The notes beneath the pieces were generated by a model, which saw only the letters and a list, made by a program, of their open reading frames with translations, did not search any database and was not told the DNA's origin. Made by a program: the position numbers and the translations under genes. A stretch of DNA of 52,826 nt. It comes from Perkinsus olseni. Lineage: Eukaryota. This document shows positions 19,388-43,132 of the stretch, one piece after another (position 1 is the stretch's first letter; the number at the start of each line of letters is the position of its first letter). Location: contig JABANN010000209.1 of the NCBI GenBank assembly GCA_013115125.1, forward strand, positions 1 to 52,826. Direction: 5' to 3'.

Positions 19388-19420
<33 letters not shown>

Positions 19421-23677: not shown

Positions 23678-23801
23678 CTCAAAGCGCCATGCAAACCTAC
23701 TGCCCAGGAGTCCGCCCAGGGGTCACCAAAATGAACGCAAAACGACAAAGTGAGGAAACGGAAGGAGGGGATACTTTACCGACTTATCTGCTGAAGGTAC
23801 G

Positions 23802-24417
23802 TTAGAGGTAGGGGTTGATGGCGACGACGCCCTTGTGGACCTGACGGGGCGAATTGGGCGATGGATGGTATGGAAGTGTGAAATCTCACCTGCTCGTAGG
23901 TCTTGGTGTAGGTAGAGTCCTCCCTAGGCTCGGTTACCAATACCACCGAAGCAGCCCTCTTAGTCTGGCAAGCAGTACCTGAATAACACCCCATCCAGGG
24001 ATCGAACCGGGGACCTTTCGATTACCCAAAGCCTGTCTTGATGGTACGTAGGCGTAGGGAATACCCTTCTTCTCACAGTAAGCCGGCACATGAGCGATAA
24101 CATCAACCGGATAGACATCAGCAGCCAGCAGTACCATACCCTTTTGACCTGATCAACAACACCACCCTTATCGAAGTACCCCCCCGCCACGCTGAAATTA
24201 CCTTTTCTGATGGCCTTCAATACCTCAGGCACGCCCCTCCGTAAACTCTTACACGTGGCAGCTAAACAAAAACAAAGATACGACCGCAAAGCTGATATGA
24301 GCTCCCCTTACCCTTTTTAACAAGCTTCATGGCCCTAGCGTTCAACTTGCCTCCCATTAGAGGGTCGGCAATAGGGGAGACGTAGAGGGTCGTGGAGGGG
24401 GTCTCATTATCGGACAT
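23802..24417 (-). CDS. NHP2: H/ACA snoRNP subunit NHP2 (L7Ae family), copy 1, 5 exons
   Basis: LYVSPIADPL, LRRGVPEVLKAIRKG, VLLAADVYPVDVIAHVPAYCEKKGIPYAYVPSRQALG and TKR. Confidence 0.88.
23979..24025 (-). other. 47-nt intron consisting largely of a tRNA 3'-half-like (B-box) sequence
   Basis: Sequence GTAATCGAAAGGTCCCCGGTTCGATCCCTGGATGGGGTGTTATTCAG. Confidence 0.7.
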
Positions 24418-24912
24418 CGTCACCGGAATACACTAGAAGGCCTCATGGTTCCCCAGCCTATAACAATACACCGGGCCAGCCGGAAAAATGAGAGGTCCAA
24501 GCGATGGTAGAGACAGCCCGGCCCTGCGCCGCCCGAGGACAGCAGGGGCTCACCAACGCTAAGGAGACAACTGGTGCAAATGTAATTTTAACAATGTGAT
24601 GTCACGAGAAAAAATTTCCTTATGAAGCTGATAATCTCAGCATGAAACACGTTAGTGACAATATCAATTCTTGACAATAGTAATGTTCATAAGATAGATC
24701 CCAGTATGGGTCCGTTACCAGGATAACAACAACGATGAGGGCTGTGAACTACCTCCAACCCAGAAGCCCAGCAGCCTTATCCGTGCGTCCCAAGGGAAAG
24801 GAGATGAACTCAACCACGCTGGAAAAGTGATAGAAACCATCGTCTAAGTGGTGAATACTATTGCTGGTAATGGATGGGATATGACGTTGGGTGAGAGGGG
24901 AAGGGAGAATCC

Positions 24913-25661
24913 TTACAGGTAGGGGTTAATGGCAAACACGCCCTTGTGGACCTGAGTCGGTGTATAATTTCGTGGCGCGCGGTCAAAATTCAGGGTCGAT
25001 TATAGGGCTCACCTGCTCGTAGGTCTTCGTGTAAGTAGAGTCCTCCTTAGGCTCGGTTACCAATACGACTGAGGCGGCCCTTTTAGTCTGGCAAGCAGTA
25101 CCTGAATAAAAACCCATCCAGGGATCGAACCAGGGACCTTTAGATTACCCAAAGCCTGTCTTGATGGTACGTAGGCGTAGGGAATACCCTTCTTCTCACA
25201 GTAAGCCGGCACATGAGCGATAACATCAACCGGATAGACATCAGCAGCCAGCAGTACCATACCCTTTTGACCTGATCAATACCATCTTTCCACCAAATCA
25301 CAGCAACCCTCCCCTCACCCTTTCTGATGGCCTTCAAAACCTCAGGAACGCCGCGACGAAGGTTCTTGGAAGTCGCCGCTGAAAAAACAGACAAAATCCG
25401 TCGAAAGTGACAGAGTCGATGACTTTTGAACGCGCTACTCGAAGGGAAGCTATATGAGAAAGCCTGATTAAGCCCACGTCAGGCATCGGGTATAACCACA
25501 ACACCAACAACCACTCGACCGAGGCTCAGTGAGCTCCCCTTACCCTTTTTAACGAGCTTCATGGCCCGAGCGTTCAACTTGCCTCCCATCAAAGGGTCGG
25601 CGATAGGGGAGACGTAAAGGGTCGTGGAGGGGGTCTCAGTAGGGGTCTCGGTATCGGACAT
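24913..25661 (-). CDS. NHP2: H/ACA snoRNP subunit NHP2, copy 2 (tandem paralog), 5 exons
   Basis: Same peptides and intron positions as copy 1. Ends VHKGVFAINPYL*. Confidence 0.88.
25102..25148 (-). other. 47-nt intron consisting largely of a tRNA-Phe-like 3' half
   Basis: Sequence GTAATCTAAAGGTCCCTGGTTCGATCCCTGGATGGGTTTTTATTCAG. ATCTAAAGGTCCCTGGTTCGATCCC matches the eukaryotic tRNA-Phe(GAA) sequence as recalled. Confidence 0.72.
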
Positions 25662-26044
25662 TGGACGTAGTAGTATGCAACACCACCAGATGAATGGGCT
25701 GCAGCAGTCGATTCACCCGGGTTCAAATCCCCCCAAGGACAACTACTGCTGATTGTAAGGAGACAAACAACAGCAGTAAAACGTCAAAGTGCTCAAACGA
25801 GAATTAAAAAACAAGCTCGCGTAGATGTGGTCAGAGTTGGCCGCACACAATTTCCCACCTAAAAGACCACACGCCCAACTGCGCAACAAGCTTCGACTCA
25901 GAACAGACTCAGAGAAAAGCAATCCTGTACACTGGTAAGAATACAACTAGTAAAACAAGGAACCCTTTTTTGCGAAAATAACGATATTATTCGCAAAGAC
26001 AAAAAAATCACTCGGGAAGGCGCCTGCGCTGTCTCACTGGTGAC

Positions 26045-29000
26045 CTACAACTTGGAAGTAGCTAGGAAGACTTCAATATCCTCCCTCACGCGCGTAGCAT
26101 CAGCAAGCGCCTTCTGGCAGACCTGATAATAGCGAAGATAATACTGACCGTTAATAACGGCGACCTAACACCCTCGATTGGTACACAAAAATGTTATCTG
26201 TTTTTCTTTACGTAATTTCATACCAAATTTCCCACGTATCATGACGGAAAGGCTCTCGTCAACTATTAGCATAACACTATCCAGTCGCCCGGTCGTAAAG
26301 ACTATAATCACCTTGTTATCAGCGGCAGCCTCATGCGCCTCGGTGTAGCTTTTGCCGATGATACGAGCACCTCTAGCGTCATCTCGAGACTTCGCAGTTA
26401 CACAAGACTGAAGGGAAAAAGATATTACGAAACGGCCAAAAGATACGCCCTCGTACCTTGGCTATGGCAAGGTTGGTGTCCGCGTACCAGCGGAGGAGCG
26501 GTGCGAGATTGAGGGGGTCCTGACACTCCGATCGGAGGATCTGCCACGAACAACAGCAATCGCCATTCTACTCCTCAGCACTACTAAGGCCCCAAAACAT
26601 CGGAATGGAAGATCCATGATCTATAGTACTTAAGTGATAATCAGTTTCCTACTATATTACTTCCCTTGTCTAATAATAAGTATTCTTTAATATCTTTTTA
26701 CCTATTTATAGCAAGGTTCAACCTTAGATATCGACGATTTCTAACAATGATATCCCTCTTGTCCATCTCATCACCAAATAATAATTTAACCGGTGAGAAC
26801 TTCAACCGCTCACAATCTAGTTGCTCATGATTGCTCGACGCACCACGACAGCCCAATTATCAATCCACAATTAACTGCCCACCTTGCACTCATGAGCCCA
26901 CTGAAGGTCTCTGAGTTCCGCCTGGGACTCCTCGTCGCGGTAGGCACAGGCTGTGAGGTTCTCATAAAGCGGCGTTAGGTCGATAGCTGGAGGGCACTTG
27001 AGGTAGGCCAAAGTGCTCGATACCTGAGAACACATCTATGCCGGTGTTCATTGGACTCAAGCATCACTGTGGAATATATCGATTAAGAATCATATCTTCT
27101 CATGAAAAATAATCTAACTACAATCATCGGTACATTTCCGTATAATATCATCAATCATCAACTTGAAGTATCTTAGGTCGACCCTAGGCAATCACAGGCT
27201 TACCATCTTGGCAGCATCTTCAGGTCTTCCCGTGCTCATCTTCCTCTCATCCGACGACAGCCTCCTCCACAAACCTCTTATGGCATACCTAATTTTGCAT
27301 AACTCCTAACCTTCAGAGGGCCACCAAAATCTATCCTCACCATTGAAGGAAGGTGGTGTAGGTCTTAATGGCGGTAAGCCTGGCCGAGTCATGCATCCAA
27401 TTCTTACCGAGAATCCGGATCTGTTTATCTGATCGATTCTACAAGATACCATACCCAACACACCCTAGGTTGACACGAGTAGCTAAGATACCATACCCAA
27501 CACACCCTAGGTTGACACGAGTAGCTAAGATACCATACCCAATACACCCTAGGTTGACACGAGTAGCTAAGATACCATACCCAACACACCCTAGGTTGAC
27601 ACGCGTAGCTAAGATATCAATGCGTTCTAACCGAATATATAGTGTTTACTAATCCGACAAAGATACGCTCTCCCCTCACTCATGCAACCCACAGACTGAC
27701 CTGTAAACACCGGTTGTCCCTTAGCGTCCTTCAGCTTGGTATCCTTGGGGTCCGCAGCCTTAAGAATATCTCTCGCCTTCAGAACCCTGTCCATTATGTC
27801 CGGCCGAAAGACAGAGTACTGGTACCTACTCCTGAGGATCATCAAACGCCGACAGGAGAGGCCGATCTCACATCACGCCTTCCTTGGGAAGATTCCCTTG
27901 CCGGGATTCGAACTTGGCTTCATTCCGATACAGCGAGTACATATTATCGCTCAACATCCACCCCGGCGTCACTTCATTAATAGCCGGAGACAGACCAGCG
28001 ATGCACTCAGTAGACTCGTTAACGAGACTGAACGGCAACTAAAAAAAGAAAATTTGCTTCGCTCCGCCGTCGACCCTTCCCTCCCGCCTACCCCTATGGC
28101 CTGGGGCAAACAGCTGACTCCAGTGGCGATCAGAGAGTAAGGCGAGTCCACCAAATTACAGGGGTACTTGATGTTGGTAGCCAACCCAAAGAACGTCCCC
28201 TCCCCCGGCCAGTTCTCCTGGTCCGGCGCCTTTCCAGTATGGTTAGAGCCCACATTAGCACCGTAGCCGATGTTGCCCCTCCCCGCCGGCCAGAAGCACG
28301 CGATGAGCAAGGCTTGGTGGTGGAAGCCTACGAAGGGTCCGACCAAGGAGGCCGTCACCTCACCCTGACCAGACCAGAATGAACGCACAAAATCTCGCAC
28401 TATAACTCACCTCAGCAATCCCCGAGCACGGCCCGACGATAGAATCAAAGACTTTGCCGTGTCGCTCGACATGTACTGTAGGGCAGAGGGTCGCGCCTTC
28501 TACTATTCCAAAGGACTCCACGCCCGCCTCTGCCACGACCAAGCCTCAACACTCCCTCAATCACCCCCGGACTACCTTTCTGCAGAATGGCAGTAGTCAG
28601 ACTGCAGTCCGCGACACGGTTGCCCTCTAGTAAAGCACTATCATGAATCTTTGAGTTCACAACTCTCGCGCTTCGACCTATGTAGCTGCACTTCACAGAG
28701 GAGCACGATAGAACCTAACAAAAGCGTCCCGCCGGATCTGTGTAGAAGACCATCGCCTACCACTGCGTTCTCATCCACGATCGTTTTCCCCTTCCCGGCG
28801 GCTTCGACCGCAGTCATGTACTCTGACACCGCCTTTTGGTAGGCAGGAGCCAACCCTCGATTAGAGGCCACCTGAGGAGCATCTTCTCGCCATCCTGTAC
28901 TGCGGCGAGACTACCTTGGCAGCTATCTCGATCGATAGCTCAGAAAACTGCTTAGTGTCTCTGCTGCCGGTCTCCTCGGCCAAGGGAAGGGTATGGCCGT

Positions 29001-29630
29001 TGGCGTAGGTGCAGTCGGGATGCGTGGATCCTTCCACTACTCCACATCGTATAAGGGCCGCCCCTAGAGACAACCTCTTCTGCAATCGGCACGAGTGACA
29101 CAAAGATACCTTTCCGAACGATGGTATTGGCAACCAGGCCGCAGTCCTTGACCAGAGCGCCCTCATCTATCACAACATCTTCAAGGACAGTATTAAAAAT
29201 ACCGCATCCGAGCTGTCGGCGTCCGTCAAGGGTAACCTAAATTCGACACCTACCAGGCCTCCTCTCGACCAGTGCTGAGCACCTTAGAGCCCTTCACTGC
29301 TGCTATCTCCACACGACCTTGGAAACTGCATCCCCTGATGAGGCCCTTCACTCCTAGGGGACGCTGTCCTATCACCCACACATTAGCCCAGTCATCAGCA
29401 GTACACCCAGCGGCTTCCAAGGCCTCAACCTGAGCTCAGCATACGGTTACTCTTTCAGGTAGAAGTCCGGCCCTTACCTCTTCCACAGTGACGGGTCTGA
29501 CTGTCCTAGGGGCGTTGGCTTCTCGCAAGGCTGTTAGGAAGGGCGACGAGTAAACGGATTTAGACACGAAATCAGCAGGGGTGTGGTGACCGCTGAAGGA
29601 AGCTGCTCTGGTTCTCGGCAAGGCGGACAT
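26045..29630 (-). CDS. DUF4954-like protein with left-handed beta-helix-like repeats, multi-exon
   Basis: Peptide GEVTASLVGPFVGFHHQALLIACFWPAGRGNIGYGANVGSNHTGKAPDQE and hexapeptide-like IDEGALVKDCGLVANTIV and IVDENAVV. Further spliced exons run down to VCQKALADATRVREDIEVFLATSKL*. Attachment of the last exons is inferred. Confidence 0.6.
27443..27615. repeat. 42-bp intronic minisatellite, about 4 copies
   Basis: AAGATACCATACCCAACACACCCTAGGTTGACACGAGTAGCT repeated head to tail. Confidence 0.95.
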
Positions 29631-30582
29631 AGTAATGGCAAACAATCGACTGAGGGAAATGTGGGGCAAGGAAGACTGGCGATGATAGGACCCAACTCAG
29701 AAGGAGCCAAGGGTCATCGATCACGAGGGCGAGCGCTAATCACCACGATGACCCAGACTCCAGACTCCTCAGACTTCCTAGACCTCCGGGCTGGTCAATA
29801 AACCGTTCCTGAGTTTCAGGAACGAAAATGCACTAACGGCACACGCCCCCCATTGGTCCCAGTGCCTGATTGTGGCTGATGGGGGTCACTGGCCAGCATT
29901 GCTGGCCCAGCAATCGGCCGAAACTGGGGCCGGGCTTGCCATCACTCGTGTGTGATGACCGAGGATGGCTCGACGGCAGTGTGCGCCCTCTTCTCTGTTA
30001 TTTACTCTCTCATTACCTCCGAAGATTACTCCTTTCGCGTCTGCAATGCTCTAACGCTAGGCAACAGACACGCTGAATAAAAGTATTGGCGAGTCACATG
30101 GGTGTAAGGACTGCTACGAGCAAGACGTGAGGGTACATCTTGCGAAGGACAAATTGAGCTGTCGAGAAGCAAGACGGAGCTTCAACCGACGGATACATTC
30201 TGACCACCATTTTCAGTGTTGCCTGCAGAGTTCTTCATTAAAGCCCTCGCTGCTGCTGCTGCTGCTGCTGCTGCTGTAGTGCCCTCCGGTCTCGCGCGAA
30301 GCCTTTCCGGTCGCATAGACTTCAGCCCCCCTGCAGACGTAAGACTGATGATGAGGCTGACTCTTATTCCTCGATCATCGACTCATCATCTCCATGCTTT
30401 CTCGAATGGAGTGGCGTGAAACCCCCGATATGTTCTGGTTCCGGAATTTCCCGTCGCTATTGTTCACAGAATTTTTCTTGTTATTATCGCAATTGTCGTT
30501 GTTGTTGATGATGATGATGATGATGCGATTATTGTTGTTGTTGGTGTTGTTGTTGATGATGATGCGATTGTTATTGTTATGT

Positions 30583-32277
30583 TTACAGTAATACTAACGC
30601 TACGGGAGTTACCAATGGTAACCTAGCATGCTCATACTCTCAGAGACTACGAGTGTGGATTTCGTGCATAGCCATCGGAATTCCGTGATAGGAGGGAGCG
30701 GACTCATCTTCCTTGGCACGCACTTATGGAGAGACCTGTTCAGCCTCAGGGAACTAAATGAAATGATGAGGCAGAAGGGTGACTCCCAGTTCGCAACAGC
30801 ACCGAACAGGCTGAGAATCGGTGCTCAGACTCCCGACGACATTGCTCGATTCCGCTCTCGTGTTGTTGCTGAGGCCCCTGCGGATTGCTTGAGGCTCTTT
30901 CGAACAAATGCGGCTTGTGAGTCCTTCAAAAACCGCATGATGGATCGGATACGAGGAACCCTTTACGAGGTTACTGCAGTAACCTCGCCGGATCTCAACG
31001 TGACTGACGTGCAAGCAGGTGGCATTCGCTCTCTTCTCAAATTTAAGGTTGGTGCCCGGATAATGGTCGTTCGGAACATTGACATCAACCAAGGAATAGT
31101 CAGCGGCGCTTCTGCGACGATTGTGAAAGTTGGGCTCCGTAGAGGTGAAGATCGCGAGAATGTGGGGGCTATGAAGATGCACTGTCTACATAACACAATG
31201 GAATTGTGCTCATACGCTACTACCTGGTTCATTGAGACGGTGAGAGAGTCGTATCGCATCAACGAGAAGTCACGCTACTCAGCCGCAGAGCGCACCTTGG
31301 TGGTCCTGGCTCGAGTCTAGCTGGGTATAACGACCAACAGTCACCCCCTTCTCTTTCCATCGAATAGTCTCGTACGCAGCCTCTCATGAATCACCAGTTT
31401 CCTCCGTCATGACAGTTTTCTCTTCTGATCTTGCGTTTCCCCGAGAAGAGGGGAATCTGCACTGTCTACATAACACAATGGAATTGTGCTCATACAAGCC
31501 TCGCATTGTCATTCCATTCTCTCAACAATTACGCTCCCTATCTGCTCTAGTATCTCGTTCACTATGAGCTCAATCCACTTATGTTGTGTTCTACAACTAC
31601 ACCTACTGCAACGAGATAGTGCAAAGATCTGCTGTTCGAGTCGCGATATTGTCTACGTTGCGGTTGCTATGGATGAGTCTGACGAAACCATACATATATA
31701 ACCCGCAACAGTGAAGTTTATGGTGGGAAAGCGGACGGTGGGATGTCTGGCAGACATTGTCTGCAATTACCTTTCGTGCCGGATTTCGGGTGCACAATAC
31801 ACGAATCGCAAGGGAAGAGCTTGAGCTCCGTAGCTGTCGACCTTCGCACACCAACACCCTGCCCGACACCTGCCGGTTTGATATATGTCGCATTCTCCCG
31901 CGCAAGGTCCTTGTCTGGACTCCACATAATTTAGTTGCGTATTTTGATGAGAAGTTTATCCGAACCTCACCTAAAGCCCTTGCTGAGATGGAGCGCCTCC
32001 GTGGCCGGTGCAACTAGCTACGCATCTTTATCATGTACTGACATTTGTCACCTTTTCGCCAGCGCTTTGATTTCCAGTTGAAAAAATTAAGTTCAAATGC
32101 GCCACTAGTAACACTTCACGCGCCCTTCCAAAAAGGTTTCAGCGAGGACGTCTCTTCGTAGCCCTTGTTGCTATGTGTTCACAGTAATACTAACGCTACG
32201 GGAGTTACCAATGGTAACTTAGCATGCTCATACTCTCAGAGACTACGAGTGTGGATTTCGTGCATAGCCATCGGAAA
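30583..32277 (+). mobile_element. PIF1-family helicase C-terminal remnant (Helitron-like) bracketed by about 95-bp direct repeats
   Basis: Peptides LWRDLFSLRELNEMMRQKGD, LKFKVGARIMVVRNID, QLPF...CTIHESQGKSL and YVAFSRARSLSGL. Near-identical repeats lie at about 30583-30680 and 32180-32277. Confidence 0.8.
31177..31710 (+). mobile_element. TRIM/LTR-like insertion interrupting the PIF1 ORF
   Basis: TGCACTGTCTACATAACACAATGGAATTGTGCTCATAC occurs at 31178 and 31458. The purine tract GAGAAGAGGGGAA precedes the second copy. The insertion ends in CA and is flanked by ATGAAG and GTGAAG. Confidence 0.55.
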
Positions 32278-33017
32278 TCGATGAACGAAATCTTCCCCAT
32301 CCTCTCCCTAACTATCTCAGTGAGACTCGCCTCTTCGCTGATGACGGCCTTCTCTAACACTCACCTCTTGCCCTCCTTCAACTCCGGCTGTTTCATAGTA
32401 AACCGCGTTGGAACATCACAAGTTCGACTTTTACTCGCGTCAACCTAAGATTCTCCTAACTACTAGTTAGTAACTAGCTCAAAAGAGAAAACTCGCCTAA
32501 AAGTGCTGCCCGATCTGGCACTGCCCGAAATATGGTGTCTGAGCTGAAAATTGCCTAAGAAGAAAATGCTTTAGTTGACCGCGGCCTGGAACACCATGTC
32601 TGGGTTCGTCCACAGACCAAGAGGGTCCTCCGGGCGCAGCGGTCATCGACGACGATGAACTCGACTACTGCTACCAACATGCGAATTCGAAAGTCCCACC
32701 ACGGAATTGAAGGTTCTACGTGCGGAATAGATATTCCCGTTTCAGATTCGTACATCCAACTTCTCTCGCCTCGGCGAACTTAATGGATCCATTGTCGAAA
32801 TAGATGCTGAAAAGCTGAAAGGGTGAACTCAACAGAGATTGAGTTCAACAGGAGCAGCGCGGGCCCTGTGCCGGAGAACAGGTGATCTTTCTAGTGCGGA
32901 CTAGGTTTTACCTACCGTTTCAAATGCCACCTGCATTTGCACTCAGTAATGGCTTCGCCTTCTCTGGTCATGAGACGACCGTCGAGAAGAGAACAATCAG
33001 TCAGATCGACTTCAGCC

Positions 33018-33050
33018 TAGAGGTGGGCACCAAAGCAGTGCCCACCCCTA
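33018..33050. mobile_element. 33-bp minimal hAT-type element with 8-bp TSD CTTCAGCC
   Basis: TAGAGGTGGGCAC-CAAAGCA-GTGCCCACCCCTA, with CTTCAGCC at 33010-33017 and 33051-33058. Confidence 0.8.
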
Positions 33051-33681
33051 CTTCAGCCTTCCTGCTGATGTAAGATTGACGGCGATGCTCATGCCTCGAC
33101 CATCGACTCATCACCATCCTCATTCGGGTTCCCAAGTCCATAGGGTTATCCCGATGTTGTTATCTACAGTATTCAGTATCGTCTACTGCTCAGCATAGCA
33201 GTTGCACACTCCTCCCGATTTCGTTTTATCTACCACTCGTGATCCATGTTAGAAGAGATTTCTTCGACTCATCAGAGAAATCCTCGCTTGAAGAGTAGCC
33301 CCAAGTCGGTACGGACCGAGCCACCCGGGCCGAATTCGCGTTCAGTGTTCCTCAGTGAGCTGCTATTGCCAAGATAAGTATCTCTCGACTCACCCAACGA
33401 GCATCATATCGAGATGAGTTCAAAAAGAATAATGGTTTCCCATCAAACCAAATCGTTTTCTCAGGACTTAACCAGCCGCCGAACGTGAAATGAAGAAAGA
33501 AACTGTTCACTCTACTCTGTGAGGCTGCCCACTGCTGAACAGAAGACAAGATGAAGTGTTTATTCTACTAAAGGAGGCTTTCCGCCGCTTGAAATACAAT
33601 GGAGATGGATTGTTCCCACTGTCTCAAAGACAGTTATGGGAGTCTCAAATAGATGAAAGAATCACCAATGAGGCGGCCTTC

Positions 33682-35510
33682 TCACACCTTGGGGGTGCCG
33701 CCAAGCAGCTGATTTTCTATCCCGCATTGACCGAAAGCAATCTTGCAGAACCCATGGTCACCCCAATCTCCATTCCAGGAGTTAGCAACTAGCCAGTAGC
33801 CCTCGCCGTTCTCCTCGCCCCATCCGATAATCTTCACAGCATGTAGACCGATGCCAAACTCAGAAGCTTTCTTCATTGTAGACGCCGGACTTGTAGGTGA
33901 GGAAATCTTCGTAAATGACGATGACCGCAGACACCTGATTGACTAAGTCACTACCCGAAAGATTGACCCCGACCGTCCGGGTTCAAAGTCAATTTGTCTT
34001 TGAATTCAGACGAAAATAGATCTTTCCTCACCGGCCCATCAGTTGCAATGGCTTTCTTGGCGTCGTCAACACTCAAGTATTGATACGGCGATGACTCCAC
34101 CATGAAATGACGATCGCTGAAACCGATGATCATCATACATCCCCCGGGAGTCGCTCTGGGCGAGGCCCTGATAGAGGGACTCTCTTACTCTTTAAGACTG
34201 GTTGGATACCTCGCATTGGGGCATTGTTGTACACACACGGGTGTACTGTATCTGGCCTAAGCTTGACAAATATTATCGACCCAGCAATGCCTTCTTCCAC
34301 TCACCTCCTGACATGCTGCATATTTTGTGCTTTTTTCATAATGAGCGCATGGGGGGAAGTCGTACGGCCAGCATCCATCAGCTTCAGTCATCTCTCTCTT
34401 AGCAACATAATCTCCGCCTGAGAAGAGGGACAACTGCCCATCGAGTAGCCCGGGAACTAGGGCAGTGAGGATTCACGGCTCGACCGTGTGATGTGTAGCT
34501 GTGTAGGGCTAGGTTAAGACCTGGCCGTCAGCAACTTGCTGACAGCAAGGGGGAAACTATACTCACCAGTTGCGATGCCTGCGTCATGCAACCACCGCCA
34601 CGCCCGCACAGGGTACCCGCCCTCGCAACCAAAGGATCTAAGAAGGAATACATCGTCAAAAACAGAGGGAGGAAGATCCCAGCTATTAGGGCCTAATAGC
34701 TGGGATCTTCCTCCCTCGGTTTGGCCTCGGCCTAATAATTAGGCTGTCTTACGGTGCGCAGGCATTCATCTCGCCAGCCGAGAGTAGCGCTGTGTAATTC
34801 CCATCCGTTTTGATACACAGACGATCGTTGAAGGCCTCAGTGGCGCCGAAGGCCCAACAGCTGCCGCAGGCCGATTGGTCTCTGAAAGCGAGGTACCCTC
34901 GATAAAGGTAGCACTCACTCGGAGCTGATAGTTTCCCACCTGATGTGGCCGATAACACCCGAGCACTTGGGAAATCCACTGCGTGCGTCGAAGTCAGTAG
35001 GCAGGTTTTGCAACTCCTCTGGGGCATACACCTTCTTAGTGAGTCCACTCGCGGCCTCGCGTAACGTCCCACATAACCTCTTAGCGTCACGAAGGCTGAA
35101 AGCTGAGGACAACTAGCTCAACGTCTTGACAGGAGCTCTAACGGAGTTACTCTTGAGTCTTCCTTGCTCGATGGATGCAGTCCACGTCTTCTGCTTGGAG
35201 TTGATCTCATCAACGAAGCTCTGCATAATAGCCGGTCTGGTATTGTCGTATAGGTCGGCCACATCTTCTGTCGAGATGAACTCGGCCTGTGCCTTCAACT
35301 CCTCCTCGAACCGAGCGAGGTGCTGGGCCTCTTCATCGGGAGTGTACACCAACCCTGAGACCTTGAGGGATAGATCATCCAGCTATTGAGGCTGGTCGCA
35401 CCTTTCTGGGTCTTGAGATCCTCGAAGGTGCTCTTGAGGTCCCTTATAGCGAAGACTGGTGTTCCGTAGAGTAGCCACAAGCCGATACTTGCAACGAAGT
35501 GGTGGACCAT
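33682..35510 (-). pseudogene. Cathepsin B-like cysteine protease (C1A), multi-exon, with an apparent frameshift near 33877
   Basis: Signal peptide MVHHFVASIGLWLL, then LPTDFDAR, RDQSACGSCWAFG, GCEGGYP, YKSGVY and [29 protein letters not shown]. The YKSGVY frame hits TGA before the catalytic His, which lies in another frame. Confidence 0.8.
34665..34717. repeat. Perfect 26-bp-arm inverted repeat with 1-nt spacer in a cathepsin B intron
   Basis: GAGGGAGGAAGATCCCAGCTATTAGG-G-CCTAATAGCTGGGATCTTCCTCCCTC. Confidence 0.95.
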
Positions 35511-35734
35511 TCCTGTCGACTGAAATGGACTCGATGACTGTGTCACACCCTCCAATGTTCTTCATGGGTTTATTCGGTAGCAGCAGGCTGTCTGAGAGAT
35601 AGACCGCCCTCTCCTCGTTAGTACCCCGCGATATGTGTCGGACTATGCGCTGAAGCCCGCCTCGAGCCCCACTGCACGCGGAGACAGTGACGCTAGCAGT
35701 ACGGTGTTGCTGTTCGATGCCTCTGGGTGGTTAC

Positions 35735-35815
35735 TGGAGTCAACACGACCCGACATAGCTGGAGAGATGCGTCAACCAAACGTACACTGAGACCTTGAGC
35801 CAAGATGGCTACGGA
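35735..35815 (-). ncRNA. Putative spliced-leader RNA gene (SL exon 35815-35794 followed by a GT donor; 3' end uncertain)
   Basis: Minus strand reads TCCGTAGCCATCTTGGCTCAAG|GTCTCAG, a perfect match to the dinoflagellate/perkinsid SL consensus. Confidence 0.75.
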
Positions 35816-36452
35816 ATTAACAGCTATCGACGCTCAATACTCAAGGCTCATAATAATCCCACGCTAGCACAATAGCACGCTAGCACAGGAGACCATCTGC
35901 ACGCATGTACAGAGGGAGACAATCTCTACCAAACTAACTGATCGAGCATCAATAACGGCCACCGTTCGGCCGTCCACTGATAGCCCATGGAGCCTCGCTC
36001 TCTTTCGCCTATCGAGGTAGACACTTGCAGGTGCGCGTTGAAGGTATGACGACAGATTGTCGCAGAGGGTGACTGCTTTCCTGCTCTTCGCTGGACTAGA
36101 TGTCTCACGTGATGTCAACAGACTAGCTCGACCCGAATCTGACTAACTCAAGCCGAGACAGCGAGAGAGCACGTATGAGATTCTGTGGCGGAGCCTTCGT
36201 TAATAACCGTCTTCATGAACAAGCCAATCCTGGGTGGCTGGTCGGAGCTTTCTGTCGAGGCGCCGTCTTAACTTTCGATGTTGCGGAGGCTTCGATGAGA
36301 GATGAACCCTGTGGTTGGCGGATACACTATTATCTGGGTCCATCTTCATCACATATTTCGCATCGCATGCAAGAGGGGCGCTTCTTACTAATAAACTCAA
36401 CACCGTCGGAGTTCAAAGAATTGTGAATAACAATCATCATAAACAGTTCACT

Positions 36453-37173
36453 TCACGCCTTTTCTCCTTCTTTCTCAGAGCCGGCAGCAATGATGTTCTC
36501 AACTTTATCAACTTTGTCCTTCAGCGTCTGATGCTTATCAATCCGCGTACCAAACCTCATATTGGAGTTAACGCGCGGGCAACCTGAAGCAGCAGCACTA
36601 GCACGCTGACGGGAAACACAAAGCCTCGCGACTCCCACCCATCTCGTGAAGCACTTCGTGAGCTAACTTAACAGCTCCCATAACATCCGACCATTGGCCT
36701 TCGATGTTCGTACCGTAACCGTGTAGTGTCGTAGACACGCCAGGGTAGTTCCTGTCACAATAAAAATCATAACAGCTTTGAAAGCGGCAATGACTAACCT
36801 CAGCACTTTTTCAACTTCACTTACATACTTCGATACACTGGTACCAACCCCCAGAGGAACTATGCAAACATCAGCTAGTACCTACCAGAACGACGACCAT
36901 GAGCAACACTAGGAAGGCTACGAAAGCTACCGGCGTGAAACCGTTTAAGTTTAACTAGCAACAGTGCCTAAACTCCCAGGCTTCACTCACCCATTCATTG
37001 CCTTTATCTCCCCAGGGCTTCGGCGCCTTTCCTTCACTAGTAGAATAATGACGCATGAAGTTAGGAGCAACTCCGATGAGGGAGGCTGCCGGGGTGTTAT
37101 GCGCCACAAGATTCAACACTGTGGGGAGAACAACACGGCCAGCAATGGTTGAAGATGATGATGATGCAGACAT
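36453..37173 (-). CDS. MTH1187/UPF0045 (thiamine-binding, ECM15-like) family protein with an N-terminal extension, multi-exon
   Basis: Exon peptides VLADVCIVPLGVGTSVSKY, TLHGYGTNIEGQWSDVMGAVKLAHEVLHEM and GCPRVNSNMRFGTRIDKHQTLKDKV. Confidence 0.8.
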
Positions 37174-38245
37174 AAGTCTTAACTTTCTCTCAGTTAAAAA
37201 CACTGTAAGCTTCAAAACTCTATCCAACCTTCCGAAACTAAATCACTCTAACCCAAAGGAAACGAGAAGTTGAAAATGTCTGGGACACAACGAGCGGGCC
37301 CATTTTAGTAGCGTTGGTGACACGCGCATTGTGTCAAGAGAATCGTCACGCGCCACGAAATTGCCTGCTGAAAGCAGGCTGCTTTCTCTCTACAATGAGA
37401 GCTTAGTACAGGAACGACAAACAAGCAACAAGCAGGAAGGCACAATATTAATACTATTGATATTGGATATATCAGTATGCTTGGAACCTCCATCGACAGC
37501 CCTCCTATCGCGATAGAAAAGGTTGTGGAGAGCACACTCCTGATCATCGTCGATGATTAACCCCTGGCGGTGCGTCCCTCGTCGATAATGTCACGTAATT
37601 CTGGTTAGCAAGATAGGCAATACTTTCAGCGACCAACAAGTGGTTCGAGAGACCAGAATGCTCTCCTGGTAGCCAGATACGACTAGGTACCCTGTAGCCT
37701 GGGGGAATCGCTCTCAACGAGAGGGTCCACCGATAACATCTGCAACAGCGGTGGAGTTACTCTACTTGGCAACGTGGCAGCCAGCTGAGGGCAACTGTTA
37801 TCCATACTTCAAAATCATGGACATGGGCGACATAATTGCGTCCATCGAGCAACCGAGCAGCTGACTCGAAGACAGGGCGTGGGAGGGGTGTGAAGGGCGC
37901 TAGTAGCGCCGCGCTACTGTGAACCCCTACTGAAATTCTTGAATAGTCGTTGAAATCACCAAGCAATACCGAGTGGCATCACAACCGATACTACCTTCGA
38001 AGCCGCCCGCAGTCCTCCTTAGCGTCAACACGGCGCGAAAAGGAAAGCTGCGCTCATCCGTTATCATCATACCAACCACCCACAGCATCGGTCATAGTCC
38101 ATTCCTACTCTACTATTAACAGACTACAACTCGACACAGAGCAGAATGAAAGAAATAGTTCCCTTGCTGGTAAGTCCAGCATGATCGTCTTCTAACTAAC
38201 GTTGACTACTACGACTACTACTACTGCTACCTAACGCTCCATTTA

Positions 38246-41200
38246 TTAGTAGTCTCTCTTCCTACTCTCCCTGTAGTCGCCATAGGAAGCCGATCGTGAC
38301 CTCCGATTCCCCCCTCGACCGCCGCCACTGTAATAACTATCTCTACGATCTCTCGAGCTTCCCCACCAGTCGCCTCCTCGACGCCCTTCGTAGTAGCTGT
38401 CCCCGCCGCCCCTACCGTGGTAGCTATCACCACCGCCACCACGACCATAGTACGATGATCCACCGTAATCGTTGTACCCGCCGCGAGAACGGCCATAATA
38501 ATCATCATCGTAACCCCTACCATAACCTCCTCTGCCGTACTCGAACTGCCGCAGAAGATCTTCGATCTGCAACAAAGACAACCCATTCCATAAAAAGCAA
38601 GGTTCAACCTAAGATACTTACCTGGCGGATTGCCTTCTCTCTGTTAGCCTGACTGTATCCGAACACCAAAAGCCTCTCGTCACTTTTATCCTCATTATAC
38701 GCCATGAAACAGAAGGTGCTAGTGTCCTCCTCGACACGTCTCAGCTCCTGTCCACGATTGCCAGCCAACTGCGAACGAAGCTCTCTCTTCACCTCTACCC
38801 TATCCCAATCATCTCTCCCCCTGAAAGACCAGCATCTACCACAACAACCCTCACGACGAGGCAGCCCACCTCAAGTCTCTGCTGCCCAGACTGACAGGTC
38901 CGTGTCTCTGCGCCGTCAGCCACTTGAGGTACTTGCGGCACCGCTCTCGTTGGGGCTCGGTACCAGCCATGAAGCACCATTGACCAACATACTCCAGTAT
39001 ACACCCCGAAGCCGCGGCCAGCTTCTTCCTAGTAGTCCCTCGCTTGCCCAAAGCGTAAGAGAGGTCGTCAGAGGACAAATACATCCTGTCGCAAAAGCAG
39101 CTGATGAATGGACTAACATCAACATTTCTCACCTATCAGTAGCGAAGCCCTTGACGTCCTTATGGCGTTTCTCTGTGCAGCCATCAGTGAACCATCCGGG
39201 ATTCTTGGTTTCAACCGAGGACATAACCTGAAGGAGCACACCGAGTCAACGCTTGAGCTGGTTGTGGTGGGCGGACCTTCAGAAGGGCACCACGACGGCT
39301 CCTCTGGGCTCCGAATATGGTAAGTTTCTCAGTGCCTGAAAAGTGAACGTGCAAGGAGTTGAACCGACGACCTTCCGATTGGCTAATACCTGAGGCATCC
39401 TTCAGAGCTGGCTTGTCTCTCTTGTCCTTAGCCTTGTCCATGAAGAACATAAGGCATCCCCATTCCTGTTCAATACGGCCAAGCGTCTCTCGTCTATACC
39501 TGTGTCGACGACGAAGACGATGAGGACGTCCATGGCCACCTTCTAGTAGGAGTCGTAGTAGCTCAGGACGTGGTGGCCGAGAGGTATAGGGTTCGAATCC
39601 CAGTAAGGGCATTTCTACTCGATGATGCCGATTTTGCTCTTGTAGATGAATCGTCGCGGAGGCGGTGGAACTAGGCTGTGTTCGATATGATGATGCAAGT
39701 GTCGTCCTCAGAGGGTGGGCGTGGGTGGCGTGCGGAGGCCTCTAATTATGCTCGAAATTCTCGTCGCGGTCCACCACGCTCGTCAAGACGATGATGAGGA
39801 CGACGACGAGAAGGCTCAATGAAAGTGATTGTTGTTCAGACGATCGCCCGTACTAGTCTGGAGAAATAACAAATAATCACAACGGTAGTCGACAGTAATT
39901 CAGCGACAAAGGGAAAGGTCCCCGGTTCGAATCCCACACCCTGCATTTTTACCCAGTAATATATCCGACACATTCCCTGGGGACATCCACAATAGTGCAG
40001 TCGTCCCTTCCAGTAGCATCAACAAAGACCGGTCCCTTCAGTTGGGCGAAAAGCCAGTCGATGTACTCCTTAGCCTTCTGCCTCTCCACCAAAGTACCAT
40101 AAATATGAACGTAATTTCCAACATATTCGACCACCGCTCCGCTCGACGCCGCGATCTTCTTCCTAGTACCACCCTTCTTGCCGAGAGCGTACGAAATCTC
40201 ATCGTCCTGAGTATAAGGAAAGTTCTCAAAAAAACCAAATGCCCTCTAGGAGGTCACCTCAAGTCTGATGATGTCCATGCCTCCGCCCTCGTCATGGCAT
40301 TCGGTGAGTTCAATATCGTTGGTAAAGTGACCAGGGACCTTGGTCTCGACGGCCGACATAACCTGAAGGGCTCGAGGATGATGAAGAGGGCGATAGGAGC
40401 ACTCCTGCTTACCTTCAACATGGCCCCCTCTCGAGACCTCTTCGCACCGAAAATCGCTAAAGTCTCGAACTCCCTCTGAAAAGAAGCGCGTCGAATACTA
40501 AACGACGAACCCTATCCGGTGAGCTCACCGTCTTGTCCTTGTTAGTAGCATTAAAGTCGGCAAAGAACATAATAGTACTCCACTCCTCCTCGACAGCCCT
40601 CAAGAAGGACCCACCGGCGCCCGTCACGAAGCCGGCAGCCTCCCGAGGGACCTTCAAGATCGTCAAATCATCGTCATCGTCAGCCTGATAGCACCAACTC
40701 GACTTTCTCCTGACCCCTTTCGTCCATTTACCTCTTCGTCAACCATAACTGGCCCTGTCCTCTGCGCTATGACGCATTTGATGTACTTGATAGCTCTCCT
40801 CCTGACGTCCGGGGTACCGCCAATCTCAATAACATCACCAGCGGCCTTGTCCCCCTGGACCTTCTCCCTCAACTCGATATCTGCTCGGCTGACCTTGGCC
40901 AGCTTCTGTTTGGTACGGCCTTGGCGACCGAGCACGAACGCAGCGTCCGCGTTAGAAACCTGAGGGCGAAAATAAAATTATCCGGTTAGCGAGAAATTCT
41001 AAGGACCTCCATTTGCTCGTAATCGTATCCCTCATCTCGCTTCTTGTCGACCGAGGGAGAGGGGGTACGACCGATGCTGCCATCACGCAGCCTGACGATC
41101 TCCTCCTCGTTACGTCTTGGGTCAGCTGAACGCCTATGACCCCGATAAGAGCGAGACCTGAAGGTGACGGTGTCCGAGGGAAGGAAGGTAGCGGCCCTAC

Positions 41201-41400
41201 CTGGAACGCCCCCTGCGGCCACCCGACCTGCTGTTGCTGCGACCCCTACTGTCTCCTCTACGCGAGCGGGAACGACTCGAGTAGGAGGATCGGGACATAC
41301 TCCGGGCACGATCAGCATCTCCATCGTTGTTGCCGCCACCTCGGGGCGATCGAGAGGACCCCGAGGCTGAGCGAGACCGGGATACTGATGAGGAGGGCAT
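38246..41400 (-). CDS. Multi-KH-domain RNA-binding protein with RS-rich N-terminus and RGG/Y-rich C-terminus
   Basis: Repeated KH-like motifs: LGRQGRTKQKL, VPREAAGFVTGAGG, VPRECVGYITG and ALGKRGTTRKKL. SR repeats lie at 41197-41400 and GGY/RGG at 38246-38581. Confidence 0.75.
39567..39614 (+). other. Truncated tRNA-like sequence (A-box joined directly to B-box) in a KH-gene intron
   Basis: GACGTGGTGGCCGAGAGGTATAGGGTTCGAATCCCAG. The start resembles a tRNA-Ser/Leu 5' end and the anticodon arm is absent. Confidence 0.6.
39913..39950 (+). other. tRNA 3'-half-like B-box module plus T5 at the 5' end of the same intron (antisense to the host gene)
   Basis: GAAAGGTCCCCGGTTCGAATCCCACACCCTGCATTTTT. 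The first 18 nt are identical to the NHP2 copy 1 intron. Confidence 0.65.
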
Positions 41401-41630
41401 TGTAGGCGACTACAAGGGCTACCAGAGACGGTCCCCAATGAAAGAGTTTGGTGATCTAGCGACTTCACCTAGTTCCACAGCTAAGGCAGTGAAAGTGGAA
41501 AGTTGAGGGAGAAGAGGGTCACAGGCTCTCAAGACGGCAGGCGTGGTTTGACAAGGAGAGTTTCATGCTAACGACTCGATGCTTTGGCGTCAATCTCGCT
41601 GATCCTATCGATCGGTGGGAATAGAATGCA

Positions 41631-41672
41631 TAAAAAAGGCCAAGGGAAGGGATCGAACCCCGGACTTAAGGT
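41631..41672 (-). other. tRNA 3'-half-like B-box module plus T6 upstream of the KH gene
   Basis: Minus strand reads ACCTTAAGTCCGGGGTTCGATCCCTTCCCTTGGCCTTTTTT. Confidence 0.55.
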
Positions 41673-43132
41673 AAATGCAAATCGATCGTCGAGGCGAGCG
41701 CATTTCACACGTGCGCTTCTGTGGGATTCCATGTCACATTCTTTTGAGTGGAAACGGAATTATACACGTCTGGCATGGTAGATTATACGGATTCACAAGT
41801 GCAAGGTTTATCAACACCCTTAACCAGCCATGCCGCACGATTACCCCGTGTTGACAAGCATCCCACAGCAGGGGCAATTTTCCTAACATATGCAGCACGT
41901 GCGCGAGACAGGCTGGGATCATTCGAACTACTATAGGATTCCCTAAAGTATCTCTAGCCTAGAAGACTAAACTTGTCCTCAGCACACGTTGTTAACGTTA
42001 AGCACCGTTATGGCGGTTAAATGAAGTACCAGAGGAGTGTTGGCTGCTGTCGCTGTTCTTCACAATCCACACTTTGGCAACGCCGCCATGCGCACGATCA
42101 GCTTCGGCCCTCCAGCTGATGTAAGAACATCCTTGACGGCGGCCGTTGGTGATTCTTCTATGCGGCCCTGAGTGACGAAACAGCTTTTGCTTTCTCAGAA
42201 ATACCCTCAGTTGGCGGAGGGGAGATATTGGGGCGACACCAATGCGACTAGATGTGAATATAACAGTGGTCATGGACTCCGTAGGCTGACCATAGACGTC
42301 GGTGGTTCCTTTATCCCAACTAACGAGCTCCATTCTCCAGAGACTGTTGACCGTGATTGGTTCATAGCGAGGTGGGCCTCGATGCGAACAACTACGGGGT
42401 GACCCGCTATAGAGGAAGATATTTGCATCTGTGAAGATCGGAGGTTCAAGGAAAGTTGCTTAGGGGTTTTCGCCGTTGCTGAATTCAATAGGACCGTCAC
42501 CGTGGTGGGATTTGCAACTCCGAGATTCGTCCATTATCGAGTTTACGCACCGCTCTCTCGAGGGATCGACCGACATCATGCGGTTGGCCACGTTGCTCCT
42601 ATCAACGGGACCTCGAGCAGGTCAGAGTCGTGCGCAGTGGGCCGCGCAGCTAGTCTGCGTATCGACTCGAAATGAAAGTCGGCGTTGGCAGTAAAATTCG
42701 GCAAGCCGACCGTCGGCGGCCGAAGGTTCCATTGAGTCCAGCAAGAATGTTGTTGTGAGTCCGATCTCCCCGACGCAAGAGGAGATAGAGTGCGTGCCCG
42801 TTTCGCCCGAGTCCGACTGGCAACACTAGACATAGGGAAAGAGATAAGTACGTACTGACAGCATAGCCAATAAGAGAGTAAGCAATGTAAGCTCGAGAGG
42901 GCCGAGCATTGACAGGACCGAGAAATACAGAGAACAGATAATAGTGCGCGTACTATCATAACTAATAATAAGACTGGCGCGCATGCGTGCGACCAACAGC
43001 AGCCAGGCTGATGCGCATGCGTGCACAGACGAAGAGACAGCGCAGTGGCATCGCATCAGCATTCAAGGTCTCCAACCCCTACGCAACCTTACTTGAACCT
43101 CAGATCTCAATAGACGCAAATTTCATCCTCTC

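Follow-up and report, generated by a model that had tools for sequence, protein, structure and literature searches.

Front-truncated tRNA-gene tails in and near introns of a Perkinsus olseni contig: probably neutral debris, in part serving as introns

Results

On the minus strand of the window (the whole stretch of Perkinsus olseni DNA analysed here, 52,826 nt), a tandem pair of NHP2-type genes of the L7Ae family was located at 23800-25700, next to a protein-kinase gene, and a multi-KH-domain gene was located at 38242-41420. The NHP2 pair was recognised by Pfam Ribosomal_L7Ae, and its best matches among solved structures were H/ACA subunit 2 / NHP2. The KH gene has an R/S-rich head and a G/Y/R-rich tail. 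Pfam KH_1 was found in three of its exon translations, RNA-contig pieces supported the gene model, and the model kept an open frame with 10 introns (I1 to I10) in the first 11 exons and at least two more downstream. Spliced-leader tags in the RNA contigs were recognised by the leader sequence quoted in PMC9399869 and mark the organism as Perkinsus. These genes were accompanied by short modules resembling the rear part of a tRNA gene, which were numbered M1 to M8 in this analysis.

The modules were called with what we take to be the B-box/T-loop consensus. Over the whole window, five strict B-boxes were present compared with 0.11 expected, a number reached in none of 100 shuffles, and seven loose B-boxes were present compared with 0.96 expected. 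When the B-box was combined with a T-run at +13 nt past the T-loop, eight matches were found versus 1.11 expected, and again none of the 100 shuffles reached this number. The recurrence of tRNA-like modules described in the first-pass annotation was borne out. Read directly, the T-rich run of M1, M2, M4, M5, and M6 begins exactly 13 nt past the T-loop, presumably position 74 of a tRNA gene, and M3 has CTTTT at the same distance. The modules are made up of the 3' strand of the anticodon stem, the variable loop, the T-arm with its B-box, the 3' acceptor strand, the discriminator base, and a Pol III terminator; they display the B-box/T-loop consensus and the T-run right after the discriminator base that mark a relic of a tRNA 3' end. 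Front halves, judged by A-box-like matches as a class, were not enriched in the window (24 versus 20.7 expected). ARAGORN found no tRNA gene in the window, and Rfam RF00005 returned no tRNA at the gathering score or at E values up to 10, in the window as well as in short stretches. The modules are tRNA-derived, incomplete, and present in both orientations without a complete tRNA, as had been stated before.

An exact 18-mer was found at 24002-24019 (minus strand) in M1 and at 39913-39930 (plus strand), where it forms the first 18 nt of M4. This is the 18-nt identity between the KH and NHP2 introns that had been noted earlier, and it is complete. A further copy with two mismatches was located at 25125-25142 (minus strand); 0.03 matches were expected. 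Seven B-boxes were exact, and the total with at most one mismatch was 29 compared with 22.9 expected, so one-mismatch copies were not in excess. In M1, M8, M5, and M6, the T-stems have 12 pairs that fall outside the B-box, of which 4 were broken when counted by eye. Since neutral decay should give more half-decayed B-boxes, some constraint on the B-box is possible; because the copies were located through the B-box, this all-or-none pattern is a weak hint.

Folding of the corresponding RNAs gave no stability signal, as none of the eight pieces was stabler than its own shuffles (z from -0.22 to +1.62), and a structured tRNA-like RNA was dropped as a candidate for this reason. Flanking direct repeats were suggestive in three of seven modules, namely M6 (8 nt, p about 0.02), M4 (p = 0.06), and M8 (7 nt, p = 0.06), with p values that lose significance upon multiple-test correction, and no target-site duplication was found at M1, M3, M5, or M7. 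A BLAST search of E. coli genomes with M4, intended to reveal its tRNA type, returned no match. A metagenome scan with the family pattern returned two unrelated loci, in neither of which ARAGORN found a tRNA. An exonic match at 27889-27914 was judged to be chance, having two mismatches, coding sequence, and neither variable loop nor T-stem, and a profile match at 24694-24714 (E = 0.4) is doubtful. The tRNA-like position numbers, the idea of an NGU anticodon, and the chimeras referred to below are inferred.

M1 constitutes the entire 47-nt intron of NHP2 copy a (23979-24025, minus strand): it begins at tRNA-like position 35, extends through the discriminator base, and closes with a T-rich trailer and CAG. 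In RNA-contig run X8, a loose end at 24023 reads into the upstream exon. M2 is the same intron in NHP2 copy b (25102-25148, minus strand), identical to M1 at 43 of 47 positions, and an RNA-contig joint in three of four runs (X7, X9, and X14) skips exactly these 47 nt (CT..AC, cut +3). Comparison of copies a and b gave 4 differences over the 47 sites of the module intron and no possible alignment for the other three introns; in the next exon 8 of 89 sites were changed (7 synonymous changes), and the preceding 120-nt exon is identical. The preservation of the module intron could be due to constraint or to gene conversion, the latter being possible because the preceding exon is identical. None of the 13 other RNA-confirmed introns carries a module. 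Upstream of copy b, the loose B-box M7 (25712-25740, plus strand; B-box 25720-25730) precedes the NHP2b spliced-leader site by 20-30 nt; the RNA contigs mark this site by a loose end at 25700. M7 has no variable loop and no T-run. Given that about one loose B-box match is expected by chance and that tail features are absent, M7 is doubtful and possibly fortuitous. Among the modules originally described, M7 is the questionable one; M3 and M8 are added here.

M8 is a 47-nt GT..AG intron of the protein-kinase gene (23349-23395, minus strand), predicted from sequence, with a one-mismatch B-box at 23368-23378 and a T-run ahead of its CAG acceptor. Pfam Pkinase positions 2-67 match the upstream exon and positions 71-155 the downstream exon, in different frames. 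We found that M8 and M1 are identical at 32 of 47 positions without a gap, compared with a score of 24 for the best of the other 459 GT..AG 47-mers. Among the 190 pairs formed by 20 short introns, M1-M8 was at the top with an alignment score of 18 (mean -3.4, sd 5.2), and M1-M3 ranked between second and fourth. Identity reached 25/30 over the last nucleotides, including the acceptor strand and trailer, and 7/17 over the first 17. The exons flanking M1 and M8 are unrelated, and the likeness stops at the splice junctions. A whole module intron common to two unrelated genes argues for insertion or intron copying and not for a promoter-type element. The commonest intron length in the gene models is likewise 47 nt. 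M1, M2, and M8 all lie inside 1.8 kb, with M1 and M8 630 bp apart, so that purely local copying is possible. Since M8 sits in a kinase intron, the modules are not confined to RNA-processing genes; the earlier assertion that all of them adjoin such genes rested on two loci and is broken by this intron.

In the KH gene, intron 7 (39500-39952, minus strand, 453 nt) is the only long one among the 10 modelled introns and contains M4 and M5 antisense to the gene. It interrupts KH repeat unit 2; in the paralogous units 1 and 3 the corresponding place is uninterrupted, and the intron looks gained. At least four different tRNA-gene fragments lie inside it, and BLAST found no other match to its body in the window. 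Exon pieces were recovered around it, together with retained-intron unitigs in X7 (39471-39979) and X9 (39499-39967). These unitigs resemble a retained-intron path of the k = 31 graph and are uninformative on a Pol III transcript. Rfam gave weak C/D snoRNA-like matches to the intron (E = 3.7 and 5.7), which were taken as chance.

One of the fragments is a piece resembling a tRNA 5' stub (39552-39566, plus strand) that ends in TAGCTCAG. It is followed directly by M5 (39567-39614, plus strand), in which a class-II-like acceptor strand and D-arm are joined to T-loop, acceptor, discriminator, and TTT. The A-box-like TGGCCGAGAGG at 39574-39584 agrees at 10 of 11 positions with TRGCNNAGTGG, which we assume to be the A-box consensus, and the B-box (39590-39600) begins 5 nt after it, followed by 13 nt and TTT. 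M5 appears to be an internally deleted or chimeric piece of a tRNA gene, and the A-box joined to a B-box that had been reported at this place is real. M4 (39913-39950, plus strand; nhmmer E = 0.006) is a tRNA tail with a B-box at 39924-39934 and a T5 run at 39946-39950. The complement of this run, together with 39951-39952, reads GTAAAAA, the donor of the minus-strand intron, in agreement with the previous description of a tRNA 3' half with T5 at the donor site. Because its T-stem 3' strand pairs with the 5' strand at only 2 of 5 positions, M4 looks chimeric.

The neighbouring KH intron 8 (39336-39389, minus strand, 54 nt) is M3, a diverged sense copy with a loose B-box at 39355-39365 (nhmmer E = 0.45); the exon lengths around it fit the X9 contig. 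A common ancestry of KH introns 4 and 8 was considered and dropped, as they occupy nearly the same place but not exactly, and their phases differ. M6 (41632-41669, minus strand) is a tRNA tail with a B-box at 41649-41659 and a T6 run at 41632-41637. It precedes the KH ATG (41400-41398) by about 230-270 nt, where a third 3' half with T6 had indeed been placed, and the KH spliced-leader site, seen as a loose end at about 41420, by about 215-250 nt. The X9 and X14 contigs gave no cover in 41496-42100 and are uninformative on a Pol III transcript.

Discussion

Every convincing copy lies in RNA that is spliced away, either in introns or in the stretch ahead of a spliced-leader site. This location fits neutrality, since spliced-out RNA is where neutral insertions survive. 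Our best reading, which we hold to be probably correct by a modest measure, is that the modules are neutral tRNA-gene debris, some of it serving as introns. On this view selection does not maintain any Pol III or TFIIIC role of the modules, although an intact B-box could well bind TFIIIC. The Pol III/TFIIIC regulatory or chromatin system tied to RNA-processing genes, as envisaged in the first-pass annotation, gained no support here, given the position of the convincing copies in spliced-out RNA, the whole intron common to unrelated genes, and the kinase intron that breaks the gene-class link.

According to PMC3706591, five tRNA types are present in more than 500 copies in P. marinus, five families of Dada transposons are inserted in tRNA genes, and one-ended transposition, as described in zebrafish, leaves tRNA fragments at foreign sites. 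A source genome of this kind, with highly amplified tRNA genes cut by tRNA-specific Dada transposons, may have supplied tRNA pieces without their front, some of them chimeric, which would have been inserted or recombined here in either orientation. Such pieces would persist where they are harmless, in sequence that cis-splicing or spliced-leader trans-splicing takes out. A sense copy would be a nearly ready-made intron, with the GT at tRNA-like positions 35-36 becoming the 5' splice site, and the terminator T-run and the next AG becoming the pyrimidine tract and the 3' splice site. This sense route may have yielded the 47-nt NHP2 intron and its look-alike in the adjacent kinase gene. In the antisense M4, the complement of the terminator would provide the GTAAAAA donor of the 453-nt KH intron.

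It is also conceivable, if unlikely, that the front-truncated tRNA tail is a mobile or copyable intron that spreads either through reverse splicing or through insertions leaving short target duplications, and that the remaining modules are failed or antisense insertions. In its favour, unrelated genes carry M1/M2 and M8 as complete introns that are alike up to the splice junctions and not past them, M3 is a third, weaker example, a 7-nt repeat surrounds M8, and KH intron 7 is confined to one KH repeat unit. Introner families have tens to thousands of copies in fungi, Micromonas, Aureococcus, and Amoebophrya, whereas here the strong independent copies are only two, 630 bp apart, and a profile search of the whole window found no further ones. 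Moreover, the first 17 nt are identical at only 7 positions, the equal length of M1 and M8 is the modal intron length, and the fold is unstable, unlike that of fungal introner-like elements, which are said to fold stably. Neither a stable fold nor terminal inverted repeats with a duplication were found, the flanking repeats being only suggestive. In its full form, this proposal holds that the rear half of a Perkinsus tRNA gene, with an anticodon GU donor and a terminator plus AG acceptor, is a ready-made spliceosomal intron, that an introner family of such pieces arose by copying into the coding exons of unrelated genes, and that its B-boxes may load TFIIIC inside Pol II genes; we consider this improbable.

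If the relics were retained for B-boxes that bind TFIIIC without Pol III, and acted at the DNA level as orientation-free insulators or chromatin organisers around these genes, they would be extra-TFIIIC (ETC) sites, a candidate role that we regard as rather improbable. Perfect B-boxes occur in five copies, one-mismatch copies are not in excess although the T-stems have decayed, most copies have no A-box partner, M6 is situated in a spacer between co-directional genes, and the NHP2 module intron is better preserved than its sister introns. These observations are weakened by ascertainment through the B-box, and four copies, out of seven or eight, are introns in the sense orientation. The likeness of M1 and M8 also exceeds the B-box, covering acceptor strand and trailer (25/30 over the last nucleotides), while the B-box of the kinase intron is mismatched and the link to a gene class consists of two loci. 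An ETC site is defined in PMC12409998 as a B-box locus with TFIIIC and without TFIIIB or Pol III; the modules do carry a B-box motif without a functional tRNA gene.

That the modules are by-products of Dada activity or decayed intron-nested tRNA genes, with intron 7 as a degraded tRNA-gene/Dada site and the rest produced by one-ended transposition or excision repair, is very unlikely. The TAGCTCAG directly before M5 contains TAGCTC, given in PMC3706591 as the Dada-tI/tY target duplication, and would be suggestive of such a site; intron 7 is pieced together from fragments of different tRNA types, and the zebrafish case reported there is a precedent for tRNA fragments carried to foreign sites. 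Yet no frame of transposase size is present in the window, where stop-to-stop frames reach 569 aa at most, the body of intron 7 has no second match there, and most modules begin near the anticodon instead of the A-box target. We dropped a SINE or MITE sharing one core, because intron 7 and the KH upstream spacer share only the modules in BLAST against the window.

The origin of new spliceosomal introns is an old open question, and the known introner families are transposon-derived or of unknown origin. Perkinsozoa, the sister group of dinoflagellates, combine trans-splicing with heavily amplified tRNA genes. If a tRNA-tail intron was indeed gained by two unrelated genes, this would be a simple route of intron gain in which Pol III signals are reused for splicing. 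If the B-boxes bind TFIIIC, they would be, as far as we know, the first ETC-type case in an alveolate. If neither applies, the modules are ordinary tRNA debris that still matters for annotation, since tRNA finders miss such pieces and they may be confused with regulatory elements.

The modules may finally be compared with known systems. Similar to tRNA-derived SINEs, they are dispersed tRNA-type B-boxes in both orientations and often intronic; SINEs have a head with A and B boxes, a common body, and a tail, whereas A-boxes show no enrichment here and the flanking sequences are unique. Fragments linked to Dada (Kojima and Jurka 2013, PMC3706591) come from the same organism group, with amplified, rearranged tRNA genes and mixed types side by side. 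A Dada insertion consists of a Dada body or transposase flanked by a 6-7-bp duplication of a tRNA target site. In the window a Dada body or transposase is not apparent, and the modules break near the anticodon or T-loop, away from the A-box target TAGCTC, save for the one beside M5. With introners, the modules may share the occurrence of similar whole introns in unrelated genes, ending at splice sites. In contrast to introners, they comprise two independent copies in the window, form no stable fold, and originate from a tRNA gene, an origin for which no report was found in the literature searched; introners of Amoebophrya carry inverted and direct repeats, according to PMC7789003. Tailless retropseudogenes of mammals, described in PMC5322556, are likewise dispersed partial tRNA copies, some derived from unprocessed precursors, with break points in single-stranded loops and short flanking duplications. 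They are 5'-complete and 3'-truncated, whereas the modules show the reversed polarity, keeping the 3' end and terminator and losing the 5' half, with duplications that are only suggestive. Like the ETC sites of yeast and human, the modules are isolated B-boxes without a working tRNA gene, in either orientation, with some placed between Pol II genes. What defines an ETC site is TFIIIC occupancy, for which the modules are sequence-based candidates, and most modules are intronic and retain the acceptor strand and terminator of the tRNA gene.

Results

The first-pass annotation had described incomplete tRNA-like modules, with no complete tRNA, around a KH gene and NHP2; the hosts are here a gene with multiple KH domains (KH gene) and a tandem NHP2-type gene pair (NHP2a and NHP2b). 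Direct reading of 39000-42200 and 23500-25900 bore out its motif positions. An 18-nt stretch of the NHP2a intron recurred without a mismatch at the end of the long KH intron. No tRNA was found by ARAGORN in the window, nor by Rfam in the window and short stretches, whether at the gathering score or with E as high as 10. A strict B-box consensus matched five times versus 0.11 expected (0 of 100 shuffles reached five; minus strand: 23998, 25121 and 41649; plus strand: 39590 and 39924). A looser form gave 7 matches versus 0.96 expected, the extra sites being 25720 (+) and 39355 (-). One-mismatch B-boxes (29 versus 22.9 expected in the window) showed no excess past the 7 exact; the B-boxes are all-or-none, and the observation of the modules is real.

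The Pol III terminator of a tRNA gene comes after the discriminator base, 13 nt past the T-loop. When the modules were aligned in register, a T-rich run began exactly 13 nt past the T-loop in M1 (23979..24025, -), M2 (25102..25148, -), M4 (39913..39950, +), M5 (39567..39614, +) and M6 (41632..41669, -), and a pattern requiring this B-box/T-run spacing matched 8 times in the window versus 1.11 expected. A variable-loop-like AGGTC lay ahead of the T-arm in M1, M2, M3 (39336..39389, -) and M4, the equivalent in M6 being AAGTC. A-box-like matches were not enriched in the window (24 versus 20.7 expected; 32 of 100 shuffles reached 24). Only rear halves of tRNA genes recur, and the pieces are tRNA-gene tails surviving in spliced-out sequence. 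M5 departs somewhat from this, having a class-II-like acceptor strand and D-arm fused directly to a T-loop and an acceptor strand unable to pair with the first. In M4, the first 18 nt are those of M1, but the T-stem 3' strand is unable to pair with the 5' strand (2 of 5 pairs). To judge from their sequence, M4 and M5 may be chimeras or internal deletions.

RNA contigs from four runs (X7, X8, X9 and X14) were placed on 23400-42100. A joint skipping 47 nt (25102-25148) was seen in X7, X9 and X14, so the NHP2b module is exactly one small intron; the NHP2a copy (23979-24025) was backed by a loose contig end at 24023. Loose ends at 41420, 25700 and 29651 carried the spliced leader of P. marinus (sequence given in PMC9399869) in reverse complement. 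This places the window in Perkinsus, with trans-splicing of the KH and NHP2b mRNAs near 41420 and 25700. These tags mark trans-splice acceptors of three minus-strand genes, and the KH 5' UTR is short (~20 nt). Separately, a single high-depth X8 contig connected 38619 to 41742, with ends AC..TC, and three X7 contigs broke at 41742; in other contexts, sequence from 41742 on may be a repeat or belong to a unit with high expression.

Exon translations matched KH_1 in three pieces, and also Ribosomal_L7Ae, whose piece has NHP2 as its nearest solved-structure proteins, and Pkinase. The KH model (38242..41420, -), with ten introns of 43, 47, 47, 53, 50, 51, 453, 54, 49 and 47 nt in order, gave a single open frame of 546 codons, in agreement with the exon pieces and with the length of one X9 contig. 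Intron 7 (39500-39952) contains M4 and M5, both in antisense orientation relative to the gene. The GTAAAAA at its donor site complements the terminator run of M4 together with the next two bases. Intron 8 (39336-39389) bears M3, a diverged sense copy. The protein (38242-41400) has three internal repeat units, in each of which a KH domain is accompanied by another conserved block; its N-terminus is R/S-rich and its tail G/Y/R-rich, and units 1 and 2 have some intron positions in common. Intron 7 interrupts unit 2; since units 1 and 3 are unbroken at the same place, the intron was probably acquired once the repeats existed, or else lost on two occasions.

The spacing pattern also matched 23353-23378, inside a 47-nt GT..AG segment (M8, 23349-23395, -) of the kinase gene adjoining NHP2a. 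This segment lies outside the RNA-contig-covered stretch 23400-42100; the upstream exon carries the Pkinase profile as far as position 67, and the downstream exon takes it up again at 71 in a different frame, so the M8 intron is real. M8 and the NHP2a intron were identical, ungapped, at 32 of 47 positions (25 of the last 30), the best unrelated 47-mer among 462 GT..AG 47-mers of the window scoring 24. Among 190 pairs of 20 short introns, with M2 (the M1 paralogue), intron 7, four long introns and two NHP2a introns left out, M1-M8 ranked first (score 18; mean -3.4, sd 5.2), and M1-M3 and M3-KH intron 4 were tied at ranks 2-4. The exons flanking M1 and M8 were unrelated. Searching the window with a profile from M1, M2 and M8 gave no additional full copy; the only sites picked up were M4 (E = 0.006), M6 (0.085), 24694 (0.4, doubtful) and M3 (0.45). 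Among the RNA-contig joints listed, 14 of 15 were GT..AG introns, and the module was absent from 13 of those 14. A propagating intron family derived from tRNA is a reading we hold to be rather unlikely.

None of the 8 folded pieces exceeded its shuffles in stability, and a tRNA-like role at the RNA level therefore appears unlikely. Of the 12 T-stem pairs lying outside the B-box in M1, M8, M5 and M6, 4 were broken. All-or-none B-boxes alongside broken T-stems favour some B-box constraint or young age, an argument weakened because the copies were found via the B-box. ETC-like occupancy by TFIIIC, akin to the dispersed TFIIIC/Pol III system first proposed, is in our estimate an unlikely reading, slightly less probable than the intron family. 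Between NHP2a and NHP2b, the module intron differed at 4 of 47 sites, the preceding 120-nt exon was 100% identical, the next exon differed at 8 of 89 sites and the other three introns were unalignable; either gene conversion or constraint would fit these data. The mosaic divergence of the tandem pair (23800-25700) looks like a gene-conversion tract. Flanking direct repeats of 8 nt at M6 (p ~0.02) and 7 nt at M4 and M8 (p ~0.06) are suggestive only.

A second dispersed motif, GTATCTTAGGTYGA, had 10 matches at up to 2 mismatches versus 0.5 expected, on both strands (3688, 4411, 5230, 5737, 15131, 20028, 26718, 27168, 32440 and 38604), with unique flanks around a conserved core of ~22 nt. At least three matches lie within confirmed introns, one of these directly at the donor site of a KH intron further downstream (38567-38619), past the 10 modelled. 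The motif could be a protein-binding site or a transposon-end relic. Elsewhere, an almost perfect inverted repeat of 31 nt around a 1-nt loop (34660-34722) matched mir-583 and mir-550 of Rfam on both strands, below threshold (42.7 bits versus gathering 80; E = 1e-5); five copies of a 42-bp tandem repeat (27401-27652) lie within an intron of 272 nt (27429-27700) that RNA contigs confirm; triplet runs of CAG and CTG (19389-19420 and 30249-30276) occupy opposite strands ~10.8 kb apart; and an N run at 2435-2470, inside a 58-bp tandem-repeat array, is an assembly gap.

Discussion

The most likely account, which we favor somewhat over even chances, is neutral debris from a genome where tRNA genes, and transposons that cut them, abound, with some of the pieces serving as introns or splice sites. 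According to Kojima and Jurka (2013, PMC3706591), P. marinus has >500 copies of five tRNA types, and five Dada transposon families insert into tRNA genes, three with a TAGCTC target duplication; they also describe one-ended transposition in zebrafish, with fragments of different tRNA genes at an element's two ends. In the window, TAGCTCAG immediately precedes M5. In open-access papers and bioRxiv, we found no report of Perkinsus tRNA-like modules or introners, or of introners of tRNA origin. Among known systems, ETC sites are loci where TFIIIC occupies a B-box and Pol III is absent (PMC12409998). The tailless tRNA retropseudogenes of mammals, as described in PMC5322556, are 3'-truncated, a polarity opposite to that of the modules here.
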